DNA of 54,528 bases from the sequence record SRR20825019_998. One strand, 5' to 3'. The position numbers and the translations under genes are program-made. Numbering within the stretch: position 1 is the stretch's first letter; each line of letters begins with the position of its first letter. The notes below the pieces were generated by a model. That model was given only the letters and a program-made list of their open reading frames with translations, was not told the DNA's origin and searched no databases. Of the stretch, positions 19,459-42,098 are shown one piece after another.

Positions 19459-19754
19459 GAAATAATAATTTTGGTTAGTTAAGTGTGTTTGAATATTAGA
19501 AAATACAACAATCTTTTTCTAAAATTTGAGGAGAATATTAAAGAAAAAAGAATGAATTTTAATTGAACTTTAATTGATTACAAACAATTAAATTACGCTT
19601 CAAATATCGTAAATCTCAATATAAATCTTAACATTTTTTTGTGTTTTTTGTTAAATCAGTCTTAAAGAATACCTTTAACACCCCCGCAAAGGGTTGAAAA
19701 GACTGGATTTTTAAAAGAAAAATTGTAAGAAAAAGTAAAGATGGAAAGTTAAAT

Positions 19755-30330: not shown

Positions 30331-31239
30331 ATGCAAAAGAATATCACTTTACTTTTCGCCTTGGCAATTTCAGCAATAACGCTTCAGGCACAGGATAAAA
30401 AAGATTTAGACAAAAAATCTATTAAGGAAATGTGTGGGTGTTTTGAGGTTACTTTTAACTTCGCCGAAACGTTCAATTATAGCAAAGATTCATTATACAA
30501 ACCTTCACATAATGAAGTTTCATCCGCACTAGAATGGGCAGAAATTGTAACTGATGAAGACGATAAAATCGTTATTCAACATTTACTTCAAGTTGGTAAC
30601 CCAGCAAATCCGATGGTTATTAAGCATTGGCGCCAAGATTGGCTATATGAAAACACAGCTATCTACGATTATAATGCCGATAATACATGGAAATATATAA
30701 AAAAACCAGCTGCTGAAGTAAAAGGACAGTGGACCCAAAAAGTATATCAAGTAGATGACAGCCCTCGTTATGAAGGTTCTGGAAGCTGGGTACACGTTGA
30801 TGGCAAAAATTATTGGGAAAATACTTCCAATGCACCTTTACCAAGACGTGAATACACAACCCGAAGCGATTACAACCTTACTGTTCGTGGCAATAGAGTA
30901 GAATTAACAGATTTTGGTTGGATTCACGACCAAGATAACGATAAAGTAATTCGTGAAAATGATAAGGAAGATGTAATTTTGGCCAAAGAAAAAGGCTATA
31001 ACACCTACGTAAAAGTAGCTGACAGCCGTTGTGCAGTTGCTGCAAAATGGTGGAAAGATAATGGTGAAAAATGGGCTTTAGTTCGTAACAAATGGGATGA
31101 AGTTTACAACCGAAACCAAGACCTTTCATTGGAAGAAAAAGTAAGTAACAAACCTCTTTACAAGTTTTTATTTGAAGAAGAAGGTTATAACGACAAAGCT
31201 ACAATTGACGCCGTAATCGAGTCGTTTGTAAAAAAATAA
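30331..31239 (+). CDS. DUF6607-like exported protein
   Basis: Signal peptide; MCGCFEVTFNFAETF, IQHLL, KHWRQDW, WTQKVYQVDDSPRYEG, PLPRRE, WIHDQDN. Confidence 0.8.
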   Translation: MQKNITLLFALAISAITLQAQDKKDLDKKSIKEMCGCFEVTFNFAETFNYSKDSLYKPSHNEVSSALEWAEIVTDEDDKIVIQHLLQVGNPANPMVIKHWRQDWLYENTAIYDYNADNTWKYIKKPAAEVKGQWTQKVYQVDDSPRYEGSGSWVHVDGKNYWENTSNAPLPRREYTTRSDYNLTVRGNRVELTDFGWIHDQDNDKVIRENDKEDVILAKEKGYNTYVKVADSRCAVAAKWWKDNGEKWALVRNKWDEVYNRNQDLSLEEKVSNKPLYKFLFEEEGYNDKATIDAVIESFVKK

Positions 31240-36907: not shown

Positions 36908-39049
36908 TTACTTCGCCAAAGTAAGCTCATCAATAATATGGCTTGCTCCTGCAAACTTATCAATTAGAAACATAACATAACGAATGTCTACGTTGATGGT
37001 ACGTTGCAGTTGGTCATCAAAAATAACATCTCCAGCCATTGCTTCAATATTACCATCAAAAGCCAAACCAATTAATTCTCCTTTTCCATTAAGTACAGGA
37101 GACCCAGAGTTTCCACCAGTAATATCGTTATCAGTTAAAAAGTTTACTGGCAAATAGCCATCTGCATCTGCATAGCGCCCAAAATCTTTTTTCTCATACA
37201 GATCAATCAATTCTTTTGGCATATCAAACTCATGATCTCCAGGCTGGTATTTTGCAACAGTTCCTTTTAATGTAGTGTAATAGTTTTTTGTTGCATCATT
37301 ACGCTTGTCTTCTGGCAAAGCAATTACTTTTCCGTATGTAAGTCGCAATGTACTATTTGCATCTGGGTAATATTTTTCGTCAGGATTTTGAAGTCGCATT
37401 CCTTGAACAAGCAATCTATAAGCACCTTCAAATTCATCAGCTAATTGCTTTTCTTCTTCAGATTTATAACGGTAACGTGCTAATAAACCTGTTGAAAATA
37501 AATACAAGGGGTCATTCTTTAATACCTCAGCATCTGGATTAGCCAAAAATGCTTCTAGTTTTTCTTTACTCTCAAAAATACTATTCGCAAAAGCAGTATT
37601 TAAATATTCATCCCAACCAGCATCACTGTTTTTATTTGCAGCAGCAATCTCAGCTATATTTGGAGCTATATTTTTCGCTTTTGAAGTATAAAGTCTTAAC
37701 TGTGCCGCCAAAACATTTTTCTCTAAGGGAACATGAACTCCTTCATATAAGTTTGCTATATCATCGTTTAGTTTGGGTAATAACTCAGCACGTTTTGCTT
37801 CGTTTTGCTCAATATAGTATTCAATAGAACTTCCCAAACGGTATGGTAAAATACCCATTTTAGTACGCAACATCATAATCAAGTAGTTATTATGACTGCT
37901 TATTTCGTTTGTTTTTTCGTAATAGTTATTGATTACTGGAATTACATTCTCAAACTTTTCATTGCCTTTTTTAGAAGCCCATTTCTGAAATGCTTTTTCG
38001 TCTTTACGCTTACTTTCTGCAGTTTTATGCTGTGTTAAAGCGTCAATCATTCCTTGACGGTTTTTCCAGTAATTGGCGATAGATGCATAGCTAGAAGCAT
38101 AGTCAAGGTTTACTTGCTGATCTTCGTTCATGTATTTTTTCATAACATCCATAGATGTTTTTGAAGCTTCTACCCAAGCTGGATACGCATATTTTACGTT
38201 TTGCTCAATTCCTCCTGCTGGCATCCAACGGTTTGTTCTACCTGGATAACCCATAATCATTGCAAAATCATTTTCCTTAAAACCATTTAGGTTGGTAGTT
38301 AAATGGTGTTTTGGCTTCAATGGCACATTAGCTTCAGAATATTCAGCTGGATTTCCATCTTTATCTGCATATACTCTAAAAAGTGAAAAGTCGCCTGTAT
38401 GTCTTGGCCATTCCCAGTTGTCTGTATCTCCTCCAAATTTCCCAATGCTTTCTGGTGGCGTTCCTACCAAACGAACATCTGTATAATCTTGGTACACGAA
38501 ATAATAAAACTCATTTCCTTGGTAAAAAGACTTCACAGAAACAGTAAACTTTCCGCCTTCGTTATTTTCTTGCTCAATCTTAGCTATTTCACGGTTTATG
38601 GTTGCTTCGCGCTCTGCTTCCGTCATAGAATCGTTTACTAAACTTAAAATACGCTTAGAAACGTCGTCCATTCTCACAAAAAAGCGAACAGAAAGGCTTT
38701 TGGGTTTCAATTCCTCTTTATGGTTTGCTGCCCAAAACCCATTGGTTAAGTAATCGTTTTCAGCAGTAGAAAGCTCTGCTATTTGGCTATACCCACAGTG
38801 ATGATTCGTTAACACTAAACCACTCCCTGAAATAATTTCAGCAGTACACCCACCGTTAAACTGAACAATAGCATCTTTTAAGCTAGCGTTATTAATACTG
38901 TAAATTTCTTCGGGCGTAAGTTGAAGACCCATTTTTTGCATATCGCGGTAATTTAACCGTTCAATGTGCATTAAAAACCACATACCTTCATTAGCCTGAA
39001 CGGGCATAACAAATGCAGCGACGATAAGTGAGAGAATAAAATTTTTCAT
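36908..39049 (-). CDS. S46 family dipeptidyl peptidase (DPP7-like)
   Basis: NEGMW, GGCTAE..LTNHHCG, DNWEWPRHTGDF, YPDANSTLR, DITGGNSGSPV, GLAFDGN. Confidence 0.95.
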   Translation of the reverse strand: MKNFILSLIVAAFVMPVQANEGMWFLMHIERLNYRDMQKMGLQLTPEEIYSINNASLKDAIVQFNGGCTAEIISGSGLVLTNHHCGYSQIAELSTAENDYLTNGFWAANHKEELKPKSLSVRFFVRMDDVSKRILSLVNDSMTEAEREATINREIAKIEQENNEGGKFTVSVKSFYQGNEFYYFVYQDYTDVRLVGTPPESIGKFGGDTDNWEWPRHTGDFSLFRVYADKDGNPAEYSEANVPLKPKHHLTTNLNGFKENDFAMIMGYPGRTNRWMPAGGIEQNVKYAYPAWVEASKTSMDVMKKYMNEDQQVNLDYASSYASIANYWKNRQGMIDALTQHKTAESKRKDEKAFQKWASKKGNEKFENVIPVINNYYEKTNEISSHNNYLIMMLRTKMGILPYRLGSSIEYYIEQNEAKRAELLPKLNDDIANLYEGVHVPLEKNVLAAQLRLYTSKAKNIAPNIAEIAAANKNSDAGWDEYLNTAFANSIFESKEKLEAFLANPDAEVLKNDPLYLFSTGLLARYRYKSEEEKQLADEFEGAYRLLVQGMRLQNPDEKYYPDANSTLRLTYGKVIALPEDKRNDATKNYYTTLKGTVAKYQPGDHEFDMPKELIDLYEKKDFGRYADADGYLPVNFLTDNDITGGNSGSPVLNGKGELIGLAFDGNIEAMAGDVIFDDQLQRTINVDIRYVMFLIDKFAGASHIIDELTLAK

Positions 39050-39291
39050 TAATTGCTGAATTTATATTTAAAATAATTTTGAAAAGCAGTAAATATAATC
39101 GGAATACCGATTTTAAGAGCCTAAACCCATTTTAAAAATATAAAAACAAAGCAATTTTAACATTTCGTTAAGAGATGTCCGCTTATTATTATAAAAAGCA
39201 CGATCCATCCTATAAGAAAACACTGCCAAGTAAACGAAATGAAGCTTCTTATTTTAACTATAAAAACCTACTAGCGCCCTCACTACCCAAA

Positions 39292-40041
39292 CTATACCCC
39301 ACTCACAATCCCAATGCCAATACCCCTTTTAGCAAACGACTTATAAAATTGCTCTGACAGCATTTCGTAAAACTGTACTTTCACCACTCCAAAAACTTCA
39401 TTACCCCTAACAGGTTTTTCAGCAACCTCAACAATTAACTCCTGTGCATCATCTTTTTGCGACACCATTACAGCTACTACATTAAGCGTAAACCGAAAGC
39501 TATTTTGTTTCAAATTGTATTCCAACACCCCATATTCCAAACTAAAATGCGTACTCCCCTTCGGAAACTTCAACCGTTTTGGATTAAAAGCCAGTGCTCG
39601 TAACCTCCCAGAAGTAGAGTCAAAATCTGGAGTAGGTCCTAAAATTTCACTTACACTTGGCCCTGGGGTAAACTTAAATTCCTGTAGCAACATCCGCCCG
39701 CTTTCACAACTCAGTCCCTTGCCTACCCTACGTTTTCCAAATGGGGATTCATCTAGTTCTTTTATGCTCAAAAACAACTTCATTAACCGTCGGTGTAAGG
39801 TTCCATCTTCCAAATCATTAAGAAAAGGAAACAAAGCCTCCTTAAAGCATTTATTAAATTTACTACAAAACCCCAACTCCTGATTACTGTCCCGAATCCC
39901 TTGCATATTAGGGTTATTTTTTATACTTTCGGAAGTAAACCCACCCCCTGCCTTACGCTGTCGCTGTACCCCATCTTGTAAGTAATAGTTAATGCCATTG
40001 TAGGTTCCTTTAATCGGTGGAAAATTATCATCTGAAGCCAT
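39292..40041 (-). CDS. Orphan hypothetical protein (uncharacterised Flavobacteriaceae family)
   Basis: Probable start ATG 40041 (MASDDNFPPIKGTYNGINYY); basic helical N-half, beta-rich C-half (FPKGSTHF, VQFYE); no signal peptide. Confidence 0.75.
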   Translation of the reverse strand: MASDDNFPPIKGTYNGINYYLQDGVQRQRKAGGGFTSESIKNNPNMQGIRDSNQELGFCSKFNKCFKEALFPFLNDLEDGTLHRRLMKLFLSIKELDESPFGKRRVGKGLSCESGRMLLQEFKFTPGPSVSEILGPTPDFDSTSGRLRALAFNPKRLKFPKGSTHFSLEYGVLEYNLKQNSFRFTLNVVAVMVSQKDDAQELIVEVAEKPVRGNEVFGVVKVQFYEMLSEQFYKSFAKRGIGIGIVSGV

Positions 40042-40105
40042 AACTAACTGGTTTAAAGTTGTTTTATTAGTAGAAAAGTAACCCATTCCCTCCATTTATC
40101 CTAAT

Positions 40106-40270
40106 CTATATGCCAACTATATGCCGACGCTATGTCGTATATATACCAATGCTATGCCATAACTACTCCTTACCTCCTGCTACATACCCCCTACTTTCAT
40201 ACTATTTATATACACCTATCCTACACATATAAACAAACCTAAACTCACACTAAACTCGACTTAAGCCTCA
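40106..40270. repeat. Degenerate, drifting 11-bp-period tandem array (about 15 units)
   Basis: TATGCC/TATGCC/TATGTC/TATACC/TATGCC at 40109, 40120, 40131, 40142, 40153; CTA at 40180, 40191, 40202; TACAC at 40211, 40222; CTAAACTC at 40239, 40250. Confidence 0.8.
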
Positions 40271-40283
40271 TAGCAACATTGCT

Positions 40284-40314
40284 TTTGCATACTCAAAATA
40301 AAACAATACCTTTA
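40284..40314 (+). promoter_or_regulatory. Candidate promoter for the FG-GAP gene
   Basis: TTTG 40284-40287, 19-bp spacer, TACCTTTA 40307-40314 (one mismatch to TAnnTTTG). Confidence 0.45.
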
Positions 40315-40340
40315 GAAAAATTAACTTCAAAAACATATTA

Positions 40341-42098
40341 ATGAAAAAGACAATTACCCTCTTATCTGCCATATTCCTTGGAGCGACAGTTATTTCCACT
40401 GCACAACAACAAGGTAAAAAAGCAAGTTTAAACGAAGACGGCACTATTTCAGTTGAAACAGTAATGATGCCTGAAAGGTATAATAACTCAAAACAACCCC
40501 AAGTTTTTGATAGGATATGGCGTTTAGGAGAACCTACAAATCCTACATTCAAAAATACTCGAGGTGTTACCTTGGCAGATATAGATAACGATGGAGTAGA
40601 CGAAATTCTATTCGGAATTTGGAACACCCTATACGCTCTTAAAGGTGATGGCAGCGTTTTTTGGAATAAAACCCTTAGCGGAACAATATTATTACCACCT
40701 ACCGTAGCAGATTTAGATGATGATGGCACACTAGAAATTATTGTAAATACTGGTGGCGTACCAAATGCAGGTAGGGTTTACCTTATAGACCCAAATGGAA
40801 ACGACCTTCCTGGTTGGCCCCTAAACTTTAGCGACCACTGGATGATTAACGCGCCAGCTGCCGCAGATGTTGACGGTGATGGAGACCTAGAAATAATTAC
40901 TGGCGAACGCGTAAGCGGAACACAAGGGTTTGTGCACGTTATAAATAAAGACGGAACCTCAATTAATGCAAACTGGCCTGTTGAAGTGGGCGCAACTCCT
41001 GCTTTTACACCTTCTATTGCAGATGTTGATAATGATGGCAATGCAGATGTAGTTATTGCAGCTTCAAGCGGAGGTATGTATATTTTTGACAATCAAGGGC
41101 AGGTTTTTCCTAATTTCCCAGTGGTTGATGCAAATGTGAAATATTCCTACCAATCGCCAATACTTGCAGATCTTGACGGTGATAACGATTTAGAGATTAT
41201 AGGAAGTAACCACGGGGATGCCCCAGGTTTCTACGTAATGGAACACGATGGAACTTATAAATCTGGCTGGCCTATTGCTCTAGGTGGTTGGACCTATTCA
41301 CCAGCAACGGTTTTGGATATTGATAATGACGGTACTTTCGAAATCTTTATGTCAGATAGAAACACGAGCAGTACCCAAGGCGATGTACTTCCTACCATCT
41401 ATGGTTTAGACCCTGATGGAGGGAACCTACCTAATTTCCCAATAGATAAATATGGTGGTACAGAAGGGGTACTTTCTATAGCAGATGTAAATGACGATGG
41501 CGTACTAGATATTGTTTTCCCAAGTGTGCTTACCGATGCTGATGGTATAGGGTATATTCATGCCTTTTCATTAGATGGTACGGGTGAAATAGATGGTTTC
41601 CCATTACGCCCACGCGGATTTACATTTTTAAACGGTGCTGTGTTAGGAGATGTGAATGATGACGGCATGTTAGACCTTACTGCAAATAGTTATACTCAAA
41701 CCTTTGGTGGCGGTGTAGACTCTACGTATGTAAGCCTATATAACCTAAACGTACCCTACAATCCTGCAACTATAAAACGTAATGGCTATAAAGGCGAAAA
41801 CACACGTTCTGGTTATGTAAAGCTTGATGATGTGGCTGGTATTACCGAAAACACCCAACTAAATCTAATAAACATTGCTCCCAATCCTTCAAATGGAATG
41901 CTAACCTTTACAGTTCCAGCTGCAATACAAAAAGCTACCGTAAAAATATTCGGGATAGATGGGAAAGTAATGCTTTCAGAAGAAACAAATCTTGAAGCTA
42001 CTTCAAGCTTTAATTTAAAGCATCTTAAAAGCGGTATCTATTTCGTAACCATTTCCGACGGAAAAAATACTTCAACAGCAAAGTGGATTAAAAACTAA
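40341..42098 (+). CDS. FG-GAP/VCBS repeat beta-propeller protein with T9SS type A CTD
   Basis: Eight Dx[DN]xDG-like repeats (DIDNDG, DLDDDG, DVDGDG, DVDNDG, DLDGDN, DIDNDG, DVNDDG x2) with GWP/NFP motifs; CTD IAPNPS...LKSGIYFVTI...KWIK. Confidence 0.9.
   Translation: MKKTITLLSAIFLGATVISTAQQQGKKASLNEDGTISVETVMMPERYNNSKQPQVFDRIWRLGEPTNPTFKNTRGVTLADIDNDGVDEILFGIWNTLYALKGDGSVFWNKTLSGTILLPPTVADLDDDGTLEIIVNTGGVPNAGRVYLIDPNGNDLPGWPLNFSDHWMINAPAAADVDGDGDLEIITGERVSGTQGFVHVINKDGTSINANWPVEVGATPAFTPSIADVDNDGNADVVIAASSGGMYIFDNQGQVFPNFPVVDANVKYSYQSPILADLDGDNDLEIIGSNHGDAPGFYVMEHDGTYKSGWPIALGGWTYSPATVLDIDNDGTFEIFMSDRNTSSTQGDVLPTIYGLDPDGGNLPNFPIDKYGGTEGVLSIADVNDDGVLDIVFPSVLTDADGIGYIHAFSLDGTGEIDGFPLRPRGFTFLNGAVLGDVNDDGMLDLTANSYTQTFGGGVDSTYVSLYNLNVPYNPATIKRNGYKGENTRSGYVKLDDVAGITENTQLNLINIAPNPSNGMLTFTVPAAIQKATVKIFGIDGKVMLSEETNLEATSSFNLKHLKSGIYFVTISDGKNTSTAKWIKN

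Follow-up and report, generated by a model that had tools for sequence, protein, structure and literature searches.

The DNA upstream of a gene coding for a protein of 249 amino acids carries an array of head-to-tail 11-bp units. Similar arrays accompany relatives of the gene in many flavobacteria, and the array probably provides a docking platform, not described so far, for a protein that binds DNA and controls that gene. The array is located within the window (i.e., the whole stretch of 54,528 nucleotides analyzed here); it is organized in two blocks, one of which always contains five units (referred to as B units), adjoins a promoter-like site, is under purifying selection, and is linked to a large gene family. 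The interpretation that we favor, with a probability of about 0.5, is that of a composite upstream control region in which helically phased 11-bp sites, lying on one face of the DNA, would be bound by a protein and would act on the promoter. The features of the locus are the following:

39292..40041, minus strand: family gene, 249 aa, starting with MASDD at 40041 (homologs start at MAS)
40042..40072, minus strand: short 5' leader predicted for the family gene; the conserved CTTTAAACCA..GTT stands at its end, ahead of the ATG
40073..40104, minus strand: promoter-like site of the family gene, consisting of TTAG (40101-40104), a 20-nt spacer, and TACTTTTC (40073-40080)
40104..40158, minus strand: B block, five head-to-tail 11-bp units, in a register anchored on the conserved downstream motif
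40159..40268, minus strand: A block, about ten 11-bp units rich in purines and poor in C, keeping the register of the B block
40110..40232, plus strand: ORF of 40 aa with an ATG start, wholly within the repeat array
40284..40315, plus strand: promoter-like site of the divergent gene, as read from the sequence, consisting of TTTG (40284-40287), a 20-nt spacer, and TACCTTTA (40308-40315)
40341..42098, plus strand: divergent neighbor, coding for a secreted FG-GAP repeat protein with a Por_Secre_tail (T9SS) according to Pfam

A preliminary description of this DNA had claimed that an 11-bp phase holds for about 165 bp, and the comparison with shuffled sequences and with the rest of the window bears this out, revealing a significant period-11 peak. 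At 40106-40270, the lag-11 identity is 0.539 versus 0.292 in 1000 dinucleotide shuffles, none of which reached the observed value (z 6.45); lags 22 and 33 give z 4.57 and z 2.35, respectively, and all the other lags from 2 to 40 stay at or below z 1.9, the threshold obtained from the shuffles (99th percentile of the maximum z over lags 2-40) being 3.6. When all the 154-nt stretches of the 54.5-kb window are scored at lag 11 (mean 0.262, sd 0.043), the top one is that at 40102-40266 (0.539), and the runner-up reaches 0.455. Two other points of the preliminary description had to be amended: the 11-mers had been cut from position 40106, and the period is correct, but the best register begins two nucleotides earlier; moreover, the consensus had been described as drifting, and the units do change along the array, but they fall into two classes (five B units and about ten A units) rather than drifting gradually. 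Tandem Repeats Finder reports just 2.5 copies (40108-40134), owing to the drift of the units. As had been noticed from the letters, a single G is present on the plus strand in 40161-40257, and no other 97-nt stretch of the window is as poor in G; on the gene strand, the array contains 11 C per 165 nt, revealing a strong strand asymmetry.

The array had been regarded as non-coding, in agreement with its position between two divergent promoter-like sites and with the different number of units among orthologs; the 40-aa ORF embedded in it is presumably a spurious by-product of the repeats. Linking the 11 bp to A-form or underwound DNA is a matter of speculation. A repeat search of the window disclosed small repeat families only, with no meaningful inverted repeat and no inverted partner array, and the sole Rfam row for 39000-41000 at E<=10 is a chance-level SNORD65 inside the family gene (E 2). 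Other periodic signals of the window are the second-best lag-11 score mentioned above, which falls in AT-rich DNA (19510-19674), a lag-21 signal inside a DUF6607 gene (30983-31113), and a lag-6 signal (2283-2421); by inspection, none of them is array-like.

On the gene strand, the B units read, in order, GGCATAGCATT, GGTATATATAC, GACATAGCGTC, GGCATATAGTT, and GGCATATAGAT. The logo of 80 units from 16 loci gives the B consensus N-R-C-A-T-A-n-n-G-T-C, in which C-A-T-A and G-T-C are near-invariant; across the unit joints, this corresponds to a specific motif of 9-10 nt, RGTC-N-R-CATA. The A units of the orthologs have the consensus G-R-A-G-G-A-A-A-n-T-A (logo, 96 units), those of the window being more degenerate. 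The last B unit (B5) ends exactly where the TTAG element of the family-gene promoter-like site starts, and this T[TA]G box we take to be a -33 element on the basis of the TTG rule and of the spacing of Bacteroidota promoters. In the alignment of the promoter-like site (A5), the columns T78, G80, G81, T101, A102, T105, and T106 are invariant. The putative second box, TACTTTTC, fits the flavobacterial sigma-A -7 consensus, given as TAnnTTTG in the available text of PMC9723704. Relative to this predicted promoter, the B block is located at about -36 to -90 and the A units extend out to about -200.

The position of the promoter-like site suggests that the 5' leader of the family gene would span 40042-40072. 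An insertion of 11-12 nt forming a CACATTG...CAATGTG inverted repeat is present in this inferred leader in nine of the 15 aligned orthologs (L001-L004, L007, and L009-L012; A5 columns 108-130, between the -7 box and the ATG), and is absent from the window and from five other orthologs. On the opposite side of the array, the divergent gene has its own promoter-like site, whose counterpart (TTG..TAACTTTA) was seen by eye, although not counted, in the upstream DNA of the orthologs. The array occupies the gap between these two back-to-back promoter-like sites (40104 to 40284).

An alignment-based scan of genome contigs yielded 15 orthologous loci (a scan of the contigs with the single protein matched none), and the plan of the array is common to all of them, i.e., to 16 of 16 loci when the window is included. 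The number of B units is exactly five in each of the 16 loci. At unit positions 4-6, ATA is found in 79 of the 80 units numbered 1-5 and in none of the 16 sixth units; directly after B5, the motif T[TA]G-N20-TAnnTT is present in 15 of the 16 loci, the spacer being always 20 nt long and the only exception being L014. The contiguous purine-rich A units range from 0 to 11 per locus, and in L003 the A block includes a perfect run of 5 x GAAGGAAACTA. These perfect unit runs, together with the variable number of A units, indicate that the A block turns over by duplication.

In order to assess the selection acting on the locus, identities were compared in 105 pairs formed by the window and 14 loci, L014 being left out since its match starts late. 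The mean identity over all pairs is 0.484 at the four-fold degenerate sites of the gene, 0.752 in the B block, 0.729 in the 35 nt of the promoter-like site, and 0.610 in the A block; when the window is compared with the 14 loci, the corresponding values are 0.40, 0.69, 0.665, and 0.52, respectively. The identity of the B block exceeds that of the four-fold sites in 104 of the 105 pairs. Hence, the B block and the promoter are better conserved than silent sites, which points to purifying selection on both of them, and the array, being under such selection, is not the decaying remnant that had been suggested. In L002, L008, and L014 the upstream neighbor is a different one, so that the FG-GAP/T9SS-tail gene is an inconstant partner of the array, and yet the array is still found with the family gene; its being kept where the upstream neighbor changes shows that it is linked to the family gene.

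This gene had been considered an orphan, which turned out not to be the case. Its product has 38 close homologs of about 246 aa (the organism, where named, being Aequorivita) and belongs to an unnamed, mostly Bacteroidota family of 3373 clusters, as matched at E<=1e-3 among 1.84 billion representatives by a family profile (A2) of which the window gene is a founding row; 2006 clusters are matched at 1e-10. Among the best 150 matches of the profile, nearly all are 240-270 aa long and are matched over almost their full length. A longer ORF reaching 40095 was ruled out as the gene, since the homologs start at MAS. Five Aequorivita genomes harbor 6, 2, 5, 4, and 9 copies of the family gene, and the family is present in 31 of the 121 genomes sampled at the family level and in 13 of the 201 sampled at the phylum level.

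The window gene combines a full-length match to the profile with an array of period 11 in the roughly 400 nt that precede it, and the preliminary description had suggested testing the upstream DNA of its homologs for this period. If an array is defined as a lag-11 segment scoring 0.6 or more in the 340 nt ahead of the start, 17 of the 25 Aequorivita family loci with upstream DNA (five genomes) have one; of the others, one has a segment downstream and seven have none. Lag 11 was then ranked against all the 41 lags from 5 to 45. It is the top one in 10 of the 20 non-orthologous Aequorivita family loci (lag 22 in one) and in 14 of the 29 family loci found in the other genomes sampled at the family level (lag 22 in two), versus none of the 37 control stretches of the Aequorivita loci, taken inside the gene or 600-1000 nt upstream (lag 22 in none), and one of the 57 control stretches of the other-genome loci (lag 22 in one). 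On the whole, besides the 16 orthologous loci, period 11 is the top period in 24 of 49 other family genes versus 1 of 94 control stretches (Mann-Whitney test of family loci versus controls, p 7e-9 for Aequorivita and p 2e-11 for the other genomes). These counts are conservative, since the 11-bp arrays of L060, L061, and L080 are out-scored by 7-/8-bp arrays. Long 7-/8-bp tandem arrays, such as (AATCACC)n, (GTATTAA)n, and (TTAGTCG)n, stand beside the 11-bp arrays upstream of the family genes in L060, L061, L074, L080, and L085, and TGTTGTC-like heptamer runs occur nearby in L031, L008, and L047.

A search for four CATA at 11-bp spacing in the five Aequorivita genomes disclosed further 11-bp arrays with other unit sequences, two of which have distant relatives of the gene beside them. 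The units are specific to the subfamily even within one genome; examples are TCNACATAnAG, TCGGCTTAGAG, ACACGCTATAG, CCATACTCTAT, and AGTTCACCCGG. CATAC-like cores recur in the units of several subfamilies, and the TCGGC-type units of two subfamilies also end, on reading by eye, at a TTG-N20-TAnnTT site. The phylum-level sample contains short arrays made up of two to four CATACTTTATC-like units, and some of the arrays of other genera are inverted and located 250-400 nt upstream.

Arrays also exist without the gene. Five stand-alone composite A+B arrays were found in L020, L024, L029, L030, and L031 (G001 and G004), at about 1480-1545 of each; they are flanked by genes that converge or run in the same direction, and none of them has a co-oriented gene downstream. 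No remnant of the family gene was detected within 1.5 kb of the five arrays (positive control 1.6e-119), and the one in L031 retains a remnant of the promoter-like motif, as seen by eye. The existence of these copies implies that the array is not only the promoter element of the family gene; they may represent relics, additional loading sites, or elements in their own right.

Concerning the genomic context, the family gene of the window is a solo member, located between a gene for an S46 peptidase and the FG-GAP gene, and the wider window contains housekeeping genes (ddl, lpxB, comEC-like and POT transporters), i.e., the locus is chromosomal. No integrase, transposase, Rep, or terminase gene was found beside it (terminase and phage domains being sought in 26-52 kb of the window), no match of the family gene was obtained in phages or plasmids (tblastn; PLSDB), and the GC-skew profile has no switch at the site of the array. 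These data do not agree with the idea, advanced in the preliminary description, that the array might derive from an iteron-like origin or a packaging signal. Replication-origin iterons are ruled against by the lack of a Rep-like domain in the product and in its neighbors, of phage or plasmid matches, and of a GC-skew switch; as for a phage packaging signal (pac/cos), the 26-52 kb stretch has no terminase or phage domains and PHROGs returned nothing for the product.

In many other genomes, the family gene heads a compact cassette in which the array lies between it and a small divergent gene. The order is as follows: divergent HTH-like gene of 65-77 aa (no Pfam match), array, family gene, DUF5675 gene (E 1e-27 to 1e-34), and two genes for small proteins whose sequences, read by eye, contain long hydrophobic stretches. 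Examples of the cassette are:

L089:7156-9150
L090:7124-9161
L091:6814-8841

The excerpts of a 2026 preprint (10.64898/2026.04.11.717860) describe DUF5675 as a C82-like peptidase and a lysin candidate, and the common cassette looks like a lysis-type module. Two of these three regions have defense-type genes beside the cassette, that is, an Eco57I-type methylase in L089, and AbiEii/RloB and ApeA-HEPN in L090; no integrase, transposase, or Rep gene is present in the three 16-kb regions. The small HTH-like gene is absent from the window locus and from G001 and G002, where arrays and family genes are present; since it is missing from the latter two, only the family gene is a constant companion of the arrays.

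Five head-to-tail motifs of 9-10 nt, locked to a -33 element, are typical of a one-face row of sequence-specific protein sites. The suggestion that the array might be a phased, one-face loading site for a protein fits the data gathered here, i.e., the common plan of 16 of 16 loci, the conservation above silent sites, and the family linkage (24/49 vs. 1/94). Most likely, a sequence-specific protein would bind the five B sites cooperatively; the bound protein might then spread over the A units, or the A units might help the binding, and the promoter would thereby be turned up or down. In the case of activation, the bound protein could touch RNA polymerase, and in the case of repression it could occlude the promoter from upstream. 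The A units, which keep their register and composition and not their sequence, would behave like a spreading track or a shape element. Some observations speak against this promoter-control reading, namely the five stand-alone arrays, the seven of 25 Aequorivita loci without any array, and the inverted and distant arrays.

The first candidate for the binder is, tentatively, the product of the family gene itself, because this gene is the only constant neighbor of the arrays and because the units are paralog-specific within one genome. If such self-binding occurred, it would make the locus a chromosomal analogue of the ParR-parC autoregulation. However, subfamily-specific units are also expected from the common descent of a gene and its flank, so that they do not prove self-recognition. 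A bolder possibility, which we regard as unlikely, is that the family of about 250 aa consists of proteins of a novel type that coat DNA in a sequence-specific way, with each paralog polymerizing on its private array and autoregulating its own gene. The B sites would then nucleate the polymer, the A units would be its spreading track in the 11-bp register, and the gene-less arrays would be further loading sites; the whole would be a chromosomal multi-copy system with paralog-specific DNA codes and a ParR/parC-like build, based on an unrelated fold.

Different explanations of the array have to be weighed against the promoter-control region just outlined. The units might be boxes for a trans-acting regulator, such as a response regulator of the OmpR/PhoB type or a relative of the HTH-like protein of the cassette. 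PhoP boxes are in fact built of 11-nt direct repeat units, according to the excerpts of PMC2275107, and a regulator acting in trans would agree with the regulon-like occurrence of B-type arrays at five further places in two genomes, with the 65-77-aa HTH-like gene that starts beside the array in the common cassette, and with the CATAC-like cores shared by several subfamilies. On the other hand, none of the five extra arrays precedes a co-oriented gene, no phosphate gene was recognized among their neighbors (N-termini read by eye), the units differ between paralogs of one genome, which a single regulator would not favor, and the small HTH-like gene is missing from G001, G002, and the window locus; this makes a trans-acting regulator a rather doubtful, albeit not negligible, candidate. 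Alternatively, the shape of the DNA alone might matter, the flexible CA/TA steps and short A-runs, phased every 11 bp, forming a curved or supercoil-sensitive spacer that would tune or insulate two divergent promoters without a dedicated protein. The array does fill the space between back-to-back promoter-like sites (40104 to 40284) and keeps its period while the sequence of the A units turns over; moreover, the available text of PMC2241845 describes the parC of plasmid R1 as strongly curved. Nevertheless, the B units keep a motif of 9-10 nt and their number is exactly five in 16 of 16 loci, a degree of constraint that shape would not require; in addition, the array persists where the divergent neighbor has been replaced, and the stand-alone arrays, being placed between convergent genes, have no promoter to tune. 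Shape alone appears improbable.

A still less probable explanation is that of a recombination or mobile-element site (of the arm-type or end-binding kind), or of a selfish satellite traveling with the gene. The family is indeed multi-copy, its cassette occurs among defense genes (RM, AbiEii/RloB, ApeA-HEPN), gene-less copies of the array exist, upstream synteny breaks near the array in L002, L008, and L014, and perfect runs such as the 5 x GAAGGAAACTA of L003 speak for ongoing duplication. Such a site is hard to reconcile with the fixed position, count, and promoter junction across species; besides, no integrase, transposase, or Rep was found beside the window locus or in the three 16-kb cassette regions, no inverted partner array was found, and there is no phage or plasmid match. 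Lastly, the repeats might act as RNA, i.e., as a C-poor repeat leader or a small RNA titrating an RNA-binding protein, in agreement with the 11 C in 165 nt of the gene strand and with stand-alone copies that could be small RNA genes. This appears very improbable, for the conserved promoter-like site is downstream of the array, which would not be transcribed from that promoter, in other subfamilies the strand bias or the orientation of the arrays is reversed, and Rfam gave nothing beyond the chance-level SNORD65 row inside the gene.

Phased repeats are known from several systems to which the array can be compared. The iterons of plasmids are usually 17-22 bp long, i.e., about two helical turns, and are located at an origin together with an AT-rich region and DnaA boxes. 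The window array shares with iterons and Rep the helically phased direct repeats beside the gene of a candidate binder and the co-variation of their sequence with that gene, and differs from them in lacking a Rep-like protein, an AT-rich origin region, and DnaA boxes. Small DNA-binding proteins such as Cox (P2), Apl (186), and Xis (lambda) coat direct repeats of about one turn as transcription switches. Their arrays are embedded in prophage integration modules with an integrase, whereas no integrase or prophage was found at the window locus, from which the small HTH-like gene of the cassette is also absent.

The nearest architecture described, as far as the excerpts of PMC2241845 go, is the parC of plasmid R1, in which two sets of five 11-bp iterons flank the par promoter; ParR binds these iterons cooperatively, at a ratio of about one dimer to each iteron, and acts as a repressor of its own operon. 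In both cases, spacer-free head-to-tail 11-bp repeats include a block of five adjoining a promoter and are linked to the adjacent gene, and the paralog-specific repeat sequences can be counted among the likenesses to parC/ParR. The tandem block of the R1 type has its equivalent in the five B units at a -33-like element of 16 of 16 loci. The R1 system has two blocks around the promoter, a plasmid location, a ribbon-helix-helix ParR, and an actin-like ParM; in contrast, the window array has one five-unit block plus a second class of units, is chromosomal, adjoins a gene for a 249-aa product, has no ParM, and its binding is a prediction. A ribbon-helix-helix ParR was not recognized in this product by searches of low power (no Pfam match; best VIA Z 4.9), and the neighbors are an S46 peptidase and an FG-GAP protein, not a ParM or another partition NTPase, with no match in PLSDB. 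A second likeness is to the PHO boxes of PhoP/PhoB, which the excerpts of PMC2275107 present as tandem 11-nt direct repeat units in variable number, placed at the -35 region or immediately before it, each unit being occupied by one protein on the same face of the DNA. Tandem 11-nt direct repeats at a promoter are found in the window array too, and one protein per unit on one face is what we propose for it. It differs from PHO boxes in having up to 15 units of two kinds, units that differ between paralogous loci, and no linked response regulator; furthermore, no phosphate gene was recognized beside the six kinds of site seen, on reading the N-termini by eye.

A full-text literature search, subscription papers and supplements aside, returned no description of such arrays in flavobacteria or Bacteroidetes. 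On plasmids and phages, phased direct repeats arranged in rows are known to serve as operators and centromeres; in the present case, such an array is conserved as the hallmark of a large and unnamed family of chromosomal genes in Bacteroidota. If a protein reads these arrays, they would constitute a new regulator-and-operator code with paralog-specific units, and would provide a first clue to the function of the family and of the cassette with the DUF5675 lysin-like peptidase, its frequent partner. The array would also be a clean natural case for one-face promoter control in Bacteroidota, whose transcription control is poorly known.

As for the 249-aa product, no match was found in Pfam, NCBIfam, PHROGs, or PADLOC, and no Pfam domain is present in any of 16 sampled representatives of the family. 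The structural models comprise an N-terminal three-strand meander with helices (pLDDT 88.4) and a C-terminal beta sandwich, the full-length model having a pLDDT of 80.5. With this latter model, Foldseek returned nothing from the PDB at E<=1e-3 and nothing from BFVD; the wide VIA search with residues 125-249 retrieved only generic FN3/Ig-like sandwiches (best Z 4.9), and that with the N-terminal model also had a best Z of 4.9. The matches of the latter to capsid proteins of filamentous archaeal viruses (Z 4.6-4.7, with a poor rmsd) were considered as noise and give no link to A-form DNA. No DNA-binding fold or family was recognized in the product by these domain, Foldseek, and VIA searches; its overall pI is 9.1. 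The 30 nearest clusters of the ESM Atlas are all unnamed, and the score of DUF6266 is just 0.77; hhalign disclosed no relationship between DUF6266 and the family, the probability being 0.07%. The DUF6266 genes (PF19781) have direct-repeat arrays of their own: three of seven (L099, L100, and L101) are preceded by arrays of period 10, in which GTTAAT or TGCAA recurs every 10 bp.
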